Assembly: GCA_964000875.1 (NCBI GenBank)
Contig: CAXFCF010000001.1
Span: forward strand, 1 to 28,948
Source of the DNA: an uncultured Candidatus Poseidoniales archaeon
GTDB taxonomy: Archaea > Thermoplasmatota > Poseidoniia > Poseidoniales > Thalassarchaeaceae
Reading direction: 5' to 3'
DNA length: 28,948 nucleotides
Part shown: one piece after another, positions 26,169 to 28,948 of the stretch
Layout: each line of letters begins with the position of its first letter
Numbering within the stretch: position 1 is the stretch's first letter
The notes under the pieces: model-generated
What the model was told of the DNA's origin: nothing
What the model saw: the letters and a program-made list of their open reading frames with translations, nothing else
Database searches by the model: none
Position numbers and translations under genes: made by a program

Positions 26169-27026
26169 ATGAGCAACTGGCCTACCTTGGAACCGATGCC
26201 GAACCGACTCGTCAACTATGGCGTGACTGACAATGGGATTGCTATCATAGAGCTCTCATCCGATTCTGCGGGTGAACCGTGGACTGAAGGCAAGACATCA
26301 GTCAACACATACACCCACGCCATGATGCGAGATATCGACGAGGCCGTCCTCAAGGCTCGCTTCGATGACGATGTCACAGTCATTATCATGACCGGCCATG
26401 GTGACAAGTTCTTCTCGGCAGGTGCCAGTATCTCGATGCTAGATTCCGTTAGTCCCGGCTTCAAGTATTTCTTCTGCCTACACGCTAACGAGACCCTGAG
26501 CCGCTTGGAGCAGACTCCTAAGTTGGTCATCGCTGCTCTAAACGGTCACACCGTTGGCGGTGGTTTGGAAATTGCCATGGCTGCTGACATCCGCATTGGC
26601 CGCAAGGACTCCGGACAAGTCGGACTTCCCGAAGTCTCCCTTGGTGTACTGGCAGGAACTGGTGGCACTGCTCGCCTCTCCCGCCTCGTCGGCAAGGCGA
26701 AATCGATGGAGATAATGGTCACCGGCCGTAAGTTCTCGTTTGAGGAAGCAGCTGAGATGGATCTAGTCCACGAGGTTTGGGATGGTAGTTCCGATCAGTT
26801 CAAACAGGATGTTCTCGATTACGCAGGTCAATTCACCCTGCCTTTCGCAGCTAGTAAGGCGATTGGTAACATAAAGCGAAGTGTCCAGAGTGGCATGGAA
26901 ATTCCGATGGAGTACCACTTAGCACTAGAGCGAGAGTTGCAATCCGATTTGTTCCAGAGCGCTGATGCCAAGACAGGTATTGCTGCTTATGTCCAAAAGA
27001 AGATTCCTCAATTCGAGGGCAATTAG
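26169..27026 (+). CDS. Enoyl-CoA hydratase/isomerase (crotonase) family protein
   Basis: FFSAGASI, IAALNGHTVGGGLEIAMAADIR and GLPEVSLGVLAGTGGTARL, with both catalytic Glu present. Start moved to ATG 26169. Confidence 0.9.
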   Translation: MSNWPTLEPMPNRLVNYGVTDNGIAIIELSSDSAGEPWTEGKTSVNTYTHAMMRDIDEAVLKARFDDDVTVIIMTGHGDKFFSAGASISMLDSVSPGFKYFFCLHANETLSRLEQTPKLVIAALNGHTVGGGLEIAMAADIRIGRKDSGQVGLPEVSLGVLAGTGGTARLSRLVGKAKSMEIMVTGRKFSFEEAAEMDLVHEVWDGSSDQFKQDVLDYAGQFTLPFAASKAIGNIKRSVQSGMEIPMEYHLALERELQSDLFQSADAKTGIAAYVQKKIPQFEGN

Positions 27027-27062
27027 GCAAAATGGACAGAGATTCGATAGGAGGATGAAAAG

Positions 27063-28223
27063 ATGGGACCGACAGAAGTAGTAGAGCAGTACCAACCCAA
27101 CTTCGAAGCATGGATTGACGAGTTCAATGAGTGGCAGACTCGAATAGGGTTCGATCCGGCTTGGCTGGGTGACTACAGATTCGAGATTAAGTTCGATTGG
27201 GACACCGCAGGCGACACCATCGAGTTCGGTGATTTTGAGGGCATGCCGAAGTGGGAGCGCAGGATGCAGGTACCACAGCAAACCGTTCGTGATGCAATCA
27301 TCAGCATGGTCAGTGTCCAAGGCGATACCGAGTTTGCATCGGTGGAGCAGCAGTGGCACCTTCTCGATACCGCACCTACCGAGTATGACCGTAAGTCAGC
27401 GATGCGAATCATGTGCGAGGAACAGCGTCATGGTTGGCAGATGGCTTACATTCTCTGCAACTATTTTGGTGAGCAAGGAATTCGCGAAGCACAGAAGTTG
27501 CTAGAGCGTAATTCGTCAGCTAACCCAATACGAGGAGAAGAGGATAGACCCCGTCTTCTTGGTTCGTTCAATGAGCCAATCGACCACTGGCTGGACTTCT
27601 TCATGTTCACTCACTTCATCGACAGAGATGGTAAGTTCCAACTCAAGATGTTGAGCACCTCTTCGTTCAAGCCGCTAGCTGCTAGTATGGGGCCGATGCT
27701 CAAGGAGGAGTCGTTCCATCTTGGTACTGGTGCTAACGGAATCAGGAGAATTGTGAATCAAGGAGTAATTCCTTGTGCACTAATTCAGAAGTATGTCAAC
27801 AAGTGGGTTAGCACAGGTCTTGATCTGTTTGGAGTTGACGAGTCGACTAGTGCTCAGTGGGCATATGTCTACGGAATTAAGGGACGATATGACGAGCGTG
27901 AGAACGATGAACCAGCTGATCGTGAGCACCTCAACGAGGCTAGTAGAATGCTTTACTTCGACGAGTTGAATCTTGAGATGAATAGAATCAACGCCCGACG
28001 CAAGGAAGGCGAACCTGCCTTGTTTATTCCATCAGATAAGTTCAACCGCAGTGTAGGTAAGTTCGAAGGTCACAGGTTCGATCTCCAAGGAGAGCCCTTT
28101 GAGGGATCTGATGAGGATTGGGAACAATACCTAGACAGTAACTTGCCCAACGACGATGACGAGGCCGCCCTTCAAGAGTACTTCAAGGAAGAGTGGATCC
28201 AGTACCGTGAGTGGAAGGATTGA
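27063..28223 (+). CDS. BoxB/PaaA-like di-iron aryl-CoA epoxidase component
   Basis: QGDTEFASVEQ, EEQRHGWQM, FTHFIDRDGKFQL and EESFH: two ExxH di-iron helices in a BoxB-like context. GGAGG SD upstream. Confidence 0.85.
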   Translation: MGPTEVVEQYQPNFEAWIDEFNEWQTRIGFDPAWLGDYRFEIKFDWDTAGDTIEFGDFEGMPKWERRMQVPQQTVRDAIISMVSVQGDTEFASVEQQWHLLDTAPTEYDRKSAMRIMCEEQRHGWQMAYILCNYFGEQGIREAQKLLERNSSANPIRGEEDRPRLLGSFNEPIDHWLDFFMFTHFIDRDGKFQLKMLSTSSFKPLAASMGPMLKEESFHLGTGANGIRRIVNQGVIPCALIQKYVNKWVSTGLDLFGVDESTSAQWAYVYGIKGRYDERENDEPADREHLNEASRMLYFDELNLEMNRINARRKEGEPALFIPSDKFNRSVGKFEGHRFDLQGEPFEGSDEDWEQYLDSNLPNDDDEAALQEYFKEEWIQYREWKD

Positions 28224-28242
28224 ATTCGCGGGGGTTGTAACC

Positions 28243-28806
28243 ATGCAGGCACACGCGATGCTTTCCATCGACAGAGAAAATCTCAAGCCGTTCTTTGAGA
28301 GGGTTCCCGAACTTTTTGAGATGCATCACCTTCAGGAATCACAGAATCCGAAGGGATACGAGGAACTACTCTACAGAGTATACAGGCCATACACCAGTGG
28401 CATGCTCGATATGATTGACGAATGGATGGGACATGATCACCGTAGTTGGCATAGTGATGTCGAGCGAGAGGTGATGTTGATGCTCTACGCAATTCGATAT
28501 CCAGATACCTTGTTGTTGGAGAGTCTTACAGATGAAGCGGACTTGGATGTTAAGAGAATCTCAGGGTATCTACACTTCATGAAGCACACTTACACCATAT
28601 GGGACGAAGACACTCTCAAGGGTCTTGCCAAGTTAGGAATAATGATTCCTTCTACCGAGAAGGCTGATCCATTAATCTACGGTGCATATGTATCGGCAAT
28701 TGAGTTGCTCAAGGATCTTGCTCCGTTCTACTCATTCATGGAGCATGATGTTCCGCGACAGCGTCTCTTCCAGGCTGCTCTGTCTGCTTATGGTCGGGAG
28801 GAGTGA
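28243..28806 (+). CDS. Hypothetical all-helical protein (187 aa)
   Basis: ATG 28243 lies 19 nt after the boxB-like stop; the ORF-track start overlaps boxB. Ends in GAGGAG-TGA, serving as SD for the next gene. Confidence 0.7.
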   Translation: MQAHAMLSIDRENLKPFFERVPELFEMHHLQESQNPKGYEELLYRVYRPYTSGMLDMIDEWMGHDHRSWHSDVEREVMLMLYAIRYPDTLLLESLTDEADLDVKRISGYLHFMKHTYTIWDEDTLKGLAKLGIMIPSTEKADPLIYGAYVSAIELLKDLAPFYSFMEHDVPRQRLFQAALSAYGREE

Positions 28807-28808
28807 CA

Positions 28809-28948
28809 ATGAGACTCACCGTCGCCGTCATCGGTGCCGGTACGATGGGCGCAGGAATTGCACAGGTTTGCGCTCAAACAGGTTGGCAAACCAACCTATT
28901 CGACGCTTATCCAGAAGGATTGGAACGTGGCATGAATGCAATTAACGA
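28809..28948 (+). CDS. 3-hydroxyacyl-CoA dehydrogenase, N-terminal fragment (runs off the window; absent from the ORF track)
   Basis: Manual translation MRLTVAVIGAGTMGAGIAQVCAQTGWQTNLFDAYPEGLERGMNAIN shows the Rossmann GAGTMGAGIAQ signature. GAGGAG SD at 28798-28803. Confidence 0.88.
   Translation, partial: MRLTVAVIGAGTMGAGIAQVCAQTGWQTNLFDAYPEGLERGMNAIN

Follow-up and report, generated by a model that had tools for sequence, protein, structure and literature searches.

A compact BoxB-branch di-iron oxygenase and its predicted partner protein in a candidate aryl-CoA epoxidation operon of Marine Group II archaea

Do Marine Group II (MGII) archaea possess an oxygen-dependent route for the breakdown of aromatic acids? 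These organisms are among the most abundant heterotrophs of the surface ocean and are still uncultured. The question is raised by an operon at the 3' end of a 28,948-nucleotide stretch of archaeal DNA (the window), which is the entire contig C1 of a 1.56-Mb metagenome-assembled genome (MAG; 375 contigs; 84% complete). Close homologues carry the names Thalassarchaeaceae or Poseidoniales, so the source belongs to Marine Group IIb (MGIIb). This is in agreement with an earlier sequence-only reading, made without database searches, which had assigned the DNA to a probable marine archaeon and the operon to a streamlined, BoxB-like pathway for the degradation of aromatic coenzyme A (CoA) esters. We put the probability at roughly 0.55 that the operon encodes a compact BoxB-type aryl-CoA epoxidase, acting most likely on benzoyl-CoA, which is accompanied by an archaeal partner protein and feeds a cassette that resembles the enzymes of ring opening and beta-oxidation.

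The four genes of the operon lie on the forward strand at positions 26169-28948, co-oriented and separated by gaps of 36, 19 and 2 nucleotides, just as the sequence-only reading had described them. The first (26169..27026) encodes a crotonase, a single-domain enoyl-CoA hydratase of 285 amino acids when read from the ATG at 26169 (PF00378 ECH_1, E=2e-44); its reading frame is open already from a TTG at 26121. The second (27063..28223) encodes the compact BoxB-clade di-iron protein of 386 amino acids, a member of PF05138. The third (28243..28806) encodes a family-less protein of 187 amino acids, and the fourth (28809..28948) contributes the first 46 codons of a 3-hydroxyacyl-CoA dehydrogenase before the contig end cuts the gene. 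The motif GGAGG precedes both the oxygenase gene, 8 nucleotides upstream, and the dehydrogenase gene.

Sequence comparison places the 386-amino-acid protein on the BoxB branch and not with PaaA. It scores 42 bits against PF05138 (PaaA_PaaC; gathering threshold 28.5), and its closest solved structure is BoxB of Azoarcus evansii (3PER, E=1.7e-47), PaaA structures being matched only at E~2e-3. The BoxB model TIGR03225 is by far its top NCBIfam match at 225.2 bits, and the PaaA model TIGR02156 returns 31.4 bits (cut-off 280). We mapped the residues listed for the BoxB-benzoyl-CoA structure (PMC5489048), that is the iron ligands and the pocket that positions the benzoyl group, through an alignment onto the oxygenase and members of its clade. 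The iron ligands E120/E150/H153/D211/E240/H243 correspond to E90/E120/H123/D187/E216/H219 in the window protein and all six are identical in 24/24 Thermoplasmatota sequences. The equivalents of the pocket residues Q116, T119, S123, F193, F203 and F206 are likewise identical in the window oxygenase, and six of the seven benzoyl-positioning residues are invariant in the same 24 sequences; across the compact clade position 206 is Phe or Tyr. The PaaA protein of E. coli deviates from BoxB at six of the seven pocket positions. The profile searches and the phylogeny that had been proposed as checks on the sequence-only reading, together with these active-site residues, uphold its view that the protein is BoxB-like rather than PaaA-like.

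In a maximum-likelihood tree the BoxB superclade (Shimodaira-Hasegawa-like approximate likelihood ratio test, SH-aLRT, 95) is separate from PaaA, from PaaC and from a group of short SSO1313-like proteins. Within the superclade the canonical BoxB proteins (445-520 amino acids) form one clade (support 99) and the compact forms (~370-390 amino acids) form its sister clade (support 90). Both termini and the core insertions share in the length shortfall relative to canonical BoxB. Within the compact clade each of the two MGII families is monophyletic, and the pair makes up a single clade (95), a pattern that points to vertical descent of the gene. Same-length forms with 47-54% identity were found in a scan of a genome collection among Gemmatimonadota, Acidobacteriota (Terriglobia, Acidoferrales and Thermoanaerobaculia), Binatia, Deltaproteobacteria-type bacteria and Eremiobacterota. 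The compact form is not specific to archaea, therefore, and is also widespread in soil bacteria; the proposal that it is a streamlined descendant of BoxB gives way to that of a sister clade.

Searches recovered the compact gene from all 36 Thalassarchaeaceae genomes and from 56 of 58 Poseidoniaceae genomes, making 92/94 Poseidoniales, and from 0/10 genomes of a third family of the class; elsewhere in the Thermoplasmatota its occurrence is patchy. A short relative of the oxygenase (256-289 amino acids, E~1e-33), similar to SSO1313/4MUD, was seen in 8/9 genomes of another Thermoplasmatota family, for example at L047 (genome G025, 4380-5246) and L048 (genome G056, 9604-10383). It keeps the iron ligands and most of the pocket residues and has no partner gene downstream.

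The product of the third gene is predicted to be the partner subunit of the oxygenase. The sequence-only reading had listed it as an unknown protein; we see in it no bystander but a predicted subunit conserved across the Thermoplasmatota. The 187-amino-acid protein has no Pfam or NCBIfam match. All of the taxon names among its 165 homologues are archaeal, hidden Markov model (HMM) matches extend to E~1e-6 in distant Thermoplasmatota, and by these sequence searches the protein is Thermoplasmatota-specific. Of the 24 archaeal loci whose compact oxygenase gene is full-length, 22 carry the partner gene, detected by HMM, immediately 3' of it. The partner gene is absent from all 66 bacterial compact-oxygenase loci, where no bacterial equivalent was seen either. 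Long open frames had led us to suspect fusions of oxygenase and partner; these frames merely overlap and the genes are separate. Nor does the partner correspond to the extra N-terminal, insert or C-terminal segments of BoxB, with which it has no similarity (all E >1).

A shallow alignment confined to MGII sequences gave an unusable AlphaFold2 model of the partner, with a predicted local distance difference test (pLDDT) score of 56. When divergent Thermoplasmatota sequences were added, the diverse alignment yielded a confident all-helical model (pLDDT 91; predicted template-modelling score, pTM, 0.87). Foldseek found no match for this model in the PDB at E<=0.001. By VIA-align the model comes nearest, among solved folds, to HhH-GPD/OGG DNA glycosylases (Z 6.4, 5.3 and 5.0, all modest), and its Atlas neighbours, at template-modelling (TM) scores of ~0.7, include DUF6308 and OGG-containing clusters. 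We regard the likeness to the glycosylases as a weak resemblance of modelled fold that implies neither homology nor function.

Prediction of the complex between oxygenase and partner gave an interface score (ipSAE) of 0.85, against 0.00 for the best control. A score of 0.85 is reached by 58/80 solved complexes and 2/110 mismatched pairs, counts that apply here only roughly, since we used alignments of our own. At least 80% of contacts are common to the complex runs, in which the partner has a pLDDT of at least 86. On the partner side the predicted interface involves the conserved motifs 43-48, 113-116 and 161-169; on the oxygenase side it involves the helix that carries the ligands E216 and H219 (209-228) and the C-terminal tail (380-385). 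The partner contains no cysteine and so is not a redox carrier. With the modelled geometry, it may serve as an effector or gate, offer a general electron donor a place to dock, or handle the product.

The genes that accompany the oxygenase extend beyond the window. The last ~80 nucleotides (28869-28948) overlap positions 1-85 of contig C51 with two mismatches and the dehydrogenase frame carries on, showing that the operon proceeds onto C51; the assembly break within this gene looks like the outcome of strain variation that split the assembly. The remainder of the dehydrogenase gene occupies C51 3-818 and is followed by a 259-amino-acid crotonase on the opposite strand and then a 482-amino-acid aldehyde dehydrogenase. 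The same order, crotonase, oxygenase, partner and dehydrogenase followed by a reversed crotonase of ~260 amino acids and an aldehyde dehydrogenase, is found across the Thalassarchaeaceae. In the closest relative (L002) the operon stops at the dehydrogenase gene, and in the Poseidoniaceae it has an HTH_10 regulator upstream and an inserted gene for an EamA-type transporter. Beyond the aldehyde dehydrogenase, the stretch 3106-4787 of C51 (locus L139) encodes a P-loop kinase (AAA_33/zeta-toxin-like, 220 amino acids) and a membrane di-iron protein of FA_desaturase/AlkB type (340 amino acids).

The crotonase of the window scores 152 bits against ECH_1 (threshold 27) as a single domain, and its closest structures, 2PPY (E=8e-59) and the 3-hydroxypropionyl-CoA dehydratase 5ZAI, are those of ordinary hydratases. 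It is below every NCBIfam equivalog cut-off and is 92% identical to a 285-amino-acid gene product in L002. It is also the best match in the MAG to TIGR03222, the model of BoxC (a two-domain crotonase of ~550 amino acids), at 78 bits against a cut-off of 712, so BoxC was not found there; the sequence-only reading was right to describe a compact BoxB beside a single-domain crotonase that is not BoxC. In the dehydrogenase fragment the Rossmann N-terminus matches the NCBIfam models PRK08268, PaaH and Hbd, and a full-length orthologue of 296 amino acids (L027) scores 340 bits against the 3-hydroxybutyryl-CoA dehydrogenase PRK05808. The dehydrogenase of L002 (11744-12634) is 68% identical to that encoded by C51 3-818, compared with 86-92% for the three genes upstream, which suggests on identity values that the last operon gene has been replaced or is diverging faster.

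The ~260-amino-acid crotonase is PaaG-like (PDB 4FZW_C, E=2e-34), its top NCBIfam matches including 'oxepin-CoA hydrolase, alternative type' and PaaG, all below cut-off. The Box and Paa pathways require an aldehyde dehydrogenase once the ring has been opened by hydrolysis, and plain beta-oxidation needs none (PMC4498308). The conserved aldehyde dehydrogenase and the PaaG-like crotonase thus point to ring opening to a semialdehyde. The MAG also encodes a PaaF-like crotonase on contig C145 and three thiolases that are unlinked to the operon. The gene set as a whole fits the route through a ring epoxide, ring opening and beta-oxidation that the sequence-only reading had proposed.

A related set of genes surrounds the oxygenase in bacteria. 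The typical locus in Gemmatimonadota runs TetR, crotonase, aldehyde dehydrogenase, thiolase, crotonase and oxygenase, continuing in some cases with a phosphodiesterase-like open reading frame (ORF) and then with hydroxyacyl-CoA dehydrogenase, crotonase and amidohydrolase. Across the 66 bacterial loci we counted a crotonase in 52, TetR in 39, an amidohydrolase in 28, an aldehyde dehydrogenase in 22, a hydroxyacyl-CoA dehydrogenase in 18 and a thiolase in 13. The compact oxygenase is thus found with a common set of helpers in two domains of life, and the composition of this set is that of a lower Box or Paa pathway. Two further components have no obvious Box- or Paa-like role. One is the Amidohydro_2 gene that closes the cassette in those 28 loci. 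The other is a conserved ORF of ~225 amino acids between oxygenase and dehydrogenase at L073, L077, L085 and eight other Gemmatimonadota loci, which by eye is glycerophosphodiester phosphodiesterase-like and is unrelated to the archaeal partner.

In some species of the window's genus the cassette adjoins a second set of genes connected with benzoyl-CoA. A divergent Thauera-type cluster for anaerobic benzoyl-CoA metabolism lies directly upstream of the cassette at L004 (1-7418), at L005 and in G282 (C5:43083-45371); the L004 and L005 oxygenases are 83% identical to that of the window, and G282 is of the window's own genus. Among its products are two HGD-D and two BcrAD_BadFG proteins, which match BcrC, BcrB, BcrA and BcrD best, all below cut-off, and a Had dehydrogenase that scores 414 bits against TIGR03201 (cut-off 339). 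It also holds an 82-amino-acid ORF, a crotonase like dienoyl-CoA hydratase (Dch), a hemerythrin and an Oah-like gene. The cluster is rare, being found in 3/121 Poseidoniales genomes, of which two belong to the window's genus (2/4 searched species), and was not found in the source MAG; further loci are G258:C26 and G406:C1. Its position beside the oxygenase is independent evidence, from context, that the cassette handles benzoyl-CoA or its derivatives, and it is in line with the aromatic CoA-ester setting proposed in the sequence-only reading. An oxygen-sensitive, ATP-dependent ring reductase is unexpected in an aerobic marine archaeon.

We searched for the other components of the known pathways in the MAG, in five near-complete MGII genomes (1-6 contigs; 91-97% complete) and within ~8-10 kb of the oxygenase gene at 106 loci. 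BoxA is a dedicated reductase with FAD and two [4Fe-4S] clusters. In the MAG its best match, only the FNR-like half of a CysJ-like protein on contig C13, reached 89 bits (cut-off 459), and in the five near-complete genomes no BoxA was found above cut-off and no BoxC was found. PaaB, PaaC, PaaD and PaaE were found neither in the MAG nor in the five genomes, in keeping with the sequence-only reading, which had seen no reductase and no PaaB-E subunit. The MAG does encode one 2Fe-2S ferredoxin of 95 amino acids that resembles part of PaaE. No homologue of a ligase, of PaaB-E or of the CysJ-like reductase was found near the oxygenase at any of the 106 loci. The best benzoate-CoA ligase score in the five genomes was 64 bits (cut-off 375), with no PaaK above cut-off, and the sole AMP-binding ligase of the MAG is FadD-like and adjoins methylmalonyl-CoA mutase genes. 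The inspection of downstream and genomic sequence that had been advised with the sequence-only reading was thus productive in part: the aldehyde dehydrogenase on C51 and the three thiolases were there to be found, and boxA and an aryl-CoA ligase were not. Half of what that reading had itself counted against a Box-like pathway, namely a genome with no aryl-CoA ligase and no dedicated reductase, is what we found. A FAD/NAD-binding protein encoded upstream of the operon in most Thalassarchaeaceae was considered as the absent reductase. Only a dinucleotide-binding motif is recognisable in it, and its gene in the source MAG lies on a different contig (C4), with a MoaE/MoaC/FBPase block, so linkage is not obligatory and the idea is unsupported.

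How might these proteins work together? The substrate, the reaction, the order of the steps and the electron donor in the following scheme are those that we infer. The oxygenase, as a di-iron and O2-dependent member of the BoxB branch, would epoxidise the ring of benzoyl-CoA or of a close aryl-CoA. In the Thermoplasmatota it would do so in complex with the 187-amino-acid partner encoded by the next gene downstream, which the complex prediction places against the outside of the E216/H219 helix and against the C-terminal tail, a position that would fit an effector, gating or docking subunit. The PaaG-like crotonase on C51 would then open the epoxide or oxepin product, the aldehyde dehydrogenase on C51 would oxidise the ring-opened product, and the window crotonase and dehydrogenase, with an unlinked thiolase, would shorten the chain to acetyl-CoA and succinyl-CoA. 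Electrons would be supplied by unlinked general carriers, the candidates being the 2Fe-2S ferredoxin and the CysJ-like FAD/NADPH reductase. A bolder version of this scheme, which we put forward tentatively, joins the compact oxygenase and its Thermoplasmatota-only partner in a new aryl-CoA epoxidase of two subunits that can do without a dedicated reductase. The partner, with its glycosylase-like helical fold, would dock over the di-iron helix as a new type of effector or as a BoxC-like handler of the product. In that event a constitutive, O2-dependent route for aromatic acids would be common to essentially all Marine Group II archaea, and the cassettes of soil bacteria would represent a partner-less version of the same uncharacterised pathway.

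Several observations weigh against the assignment of the oxygenase to benzoyl-CoA epoxidation. Its 225.2 bits are less than half of the TIGR03225 equivalog cut-off of 499.1, which means that it is no BoxB equivalog, and in the tree it falls outside the canonical BoxB clade. Thr210, the neighbour of the ligand Asp211, is kept in 11 of 12 canonical BoxB sequences and is Val in E. coli PaaA; it is Ile in the window protein and Val, Ile or Leu in all 24 archaeal compact forms, and since it is replaced throughout the clade the pocket is not identical to that of BoxB. The matches of the crotonase, the dehydrogenase and the aldehyde dehydrogenase are generic and lie below equivalog cut-offs. No BoxA or other linked reductase was found at any of the 106 loci, and no benzoate-CoA or phenylacetate-CoA ligase was found in the MAG or the five near-complete genomes. 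Some bacterial homologues stand alone beside a TetR gene, without pathway genes nearby, and the literature searched yielded no characterised member of the compact clade. It is unusual, moreover, for a gene of an accessory aromatic pathway to be so nearly universal in an order (92 of 94 genomes). Many of these points would suit an enzyme that keeps the BoxB scaffold and takes another CoA thioester: an alicyclic or dienoyl-CoA, for example cyclohex-1-ene- or cyclohexa-1,5-diene-1-carbonyl-CoA, or the thioester of an unusual acid with unsaturation or branching. Hydroxylation, desaturation or epoxidation would then feed a beta-oxidation-like cassette. The score under the cut-off, the separate clade and the exchange at Thr210 count in favour of this alternative, as do the failure to find an aryl-CoA ligase or a dedicated reductase and the fact that every flanking enzyme is a generic CoA enzyme of the fatty-acid type. 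The gene is core to the Poseidoniales, which are better known for the degradation of protein and lipid, and the adjoining dearomatising reductase cluster would suit a dienoyl-CoA as well. We nevertheless consider another substrate unlikely: six of the seven ring-positioning residues of BoxB, among them three aromatics and Gln116, are invariant in all 24 archaeal sequences, and the conserved aldehyde dehydrogenase and PaaG-like crotonase point to a ring opening that forms a semialdehyde.

The same core status would also fit a role in clearing aryl-CoA that the cell generates as it breaks down amino acids. Here the chemistry would be as in the benzoyl-CoA scheme and the role would be the disposal of aryl-CoA derived from the Phe and Tyr of imported peptides, made by a 2-oxoacid oxidoreductase or a beta-oxidative route, so that no ligase would be needed. 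A gene present in 92/94 Poseidoniales that follows the species tree is what housekeeping catabolism would predict, near-complete genomes were found to be without an aryl-CoA ligase, and the flanking crotonase and dehydrogenase might shorten the side chain of a phenylpropanoid-CoA to give benzoyl-CoA. We hold this role to be quite improbable, however. The alpha subunit of indolepyruvate:ferredoxin oxidoreductase (IorA) was not found in the 84%-complete MAG, the conserved neighbourhood contains no gene for making aryl-CoA, and the EamA-type transporter gene within the Poseidoniaceae operon hints at a small acid that is imported or exported. As for an ordinary bacterial Box pathway whose boxA, boxC, boxD and ligase genes have merely been lost to the incompleteness of the MAG, an explanation that 375 contigs and a window that stops inside the dehydrogenase gene might seem to invite, we find it very improbable indeed and reject it. 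The continuation of the operon on C51 is without box genes, the operon of the closest relative stops at the dehydrogenase gene, neither BoxA nor a ligase scores above cut-off in closed or near-closed relatives (1-6 contigs), and the oxygenase itself is not a member of the canonical BoxB clade. Epoxidation of benzoyl-CoA or a close aryl-CoA by the oxygenase and its partner is thus the reading that we favour, and on sequence evidence the cassette probably gives MGII archaea an O2-dependent route for the breakdown of aromatic acids.

The presence of a BoxB-like oxygenase in nearly every searched genome of the order provides a concrete handle on the carbon compounds that MGII archaea oxidise. Should the enzyme act on an aromatic acyl-CoA, these archaea would join in the turnover of aromatic compounds, whether imported from dissolved organic matter or derived from amino acids; the use of aromatic dissolved organic matter, as the sequence-only reading had it, may be one of their activities. 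As an uncharacterised branch of the epoxidases, the compact clade spans archaea as well as Gemmatimonadota, Acidobacteriota and Binatia without the known reductase and ring-opening partners, in place of which its archaeal members have a partner protein that belongs to no known family. We found no publication on the compact clade, its partner or its pathway, and none that pairs Poseidoniales with boxB or Thalassarchaea with benzoyl-CoA. A boxB annotation for MG-II has appeared in passing only, in a Red Sea metatranscriptome that lists it among the highly expressed genes (PMC5069720). New or independently tested here are the clade-wise, residue-by-residue comparison of the active site, the continuation of the operon on C51, the confident partner fold with a controlled prediction of its complex, and the absence of the partner from bacterial loci. 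To these we add the ligase and reductase searches in near-complete genomes and the benzoyl-CoA-reductase-type cluster beside the cassette in congeners.

Directly ahead of the operon the window holds a group of light-related genes. They encode a CrtI-like desaturase of the amine-oxidase family (17099-18721, reverse strand), a class-2 photolyase (22027-23586, forward strand), an SRPBCC/polyketide-cyclase domain fused to an epimerase-family protein of the YfcH/ThyD type (23596-24969, forward strand) and a phytoene/squalene synthase (24977-26005, reverse strand) whose top match, HpnD, is below cut-off. In L002, the closest relative, FBPase, MoaC and MoaE stand ahead of the operon in place of these genes, so its upstream boundary has been rearranged. 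Further upstream in the window a likely surface protein of 1747 amino acids (5530-10773, reverse strand), whose sole recognisable domain is a C-terminal CARDB, adjoins an Lhr-type DEAD/DEAD_assoc helicase of 1007 amino acids (2443-5466, reverse strand).

Among known systems the oxygenase is closest to BoxB of Azoarcus/Aromatoleum evansii (3PER, 3PM5; TIGR03225), with which it shares the PF05138 fold, ~50% identity over the four-helix-bundle core, the six iron ligands and the equivalents of Gln116, Thr119, Ser123, Phe193, Phe203 and Phe206. Like boxB, its gene adjoins those of CoA-ester enzymes that include an aldehyde dehydrogenase. It differs in its length (386 amino acids against 465-481), in its sister-clade position and sub-cut-off score, and in the change of Thr210 to Ile or Val; no BoxA, BoxC or benzoate-CoA ligase was found for it. 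Canonical BoxB is reported to be monomeric, without a structural subunit, and to contact BoxA only transiently, BoxC co-purifying with it and relieving product inhibition (PMC4498308), whereas the compact oxygenase has a predicted partner. In this last respect it recalls the PaaABC(D)E system, where PaaA needs PaaC and PaaB, for it too is predicted to need a non-catalytic partner. The lower paa pathway (PaaG, PaaF, PaaH and PaaJ of E. coli, with the variant in which an ECH-type oxepin-CoA hydrolase is paired with a separate aldehyde dehydrogenase) also has its counterparts here in PaaG-like and PaaF-like crotonases, a PaaH-like dehydrogenase, an aldehyde dehydrogenase and thiolases. The oxygenase itself is unlike PaaA, to judge from its 31 bits against TIGR02156 and the six of seven pocket positions at which PaaA differs. 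No homologue of PaaB, PaaC, PaaD, PaaE or PaaK was found at the 106 loci, or in the MAG except for the small 2Fe-2S ferredoxin, and the 187-amino-acid partner is unrelated to PaaB or PaaC in sequence and fold. The short SSO1313-type protein of Sulfolobus solfataricus (PDB 4MUD, 'ring oxidation complex/phenylacetic acid degradation related protein') is archaeal and of the same superfamily (E=2e-16 to the compact oxygenase), but it is of a type with 235-290 amino acids that branches outside the BoxB superclade and has no downstream partner gene. For the partner the nearest analogy is with the effector or coupling proteins of the bacterial multicomponent monooxygenases, for example MmoB. Although its all-helical fold is unrelated to theirs and it has no sequence similarity to them, the 187-amino-acid protein is likewise small and cofactor-less, and it is predicted to dock above the helices that hold the di-iron centre.

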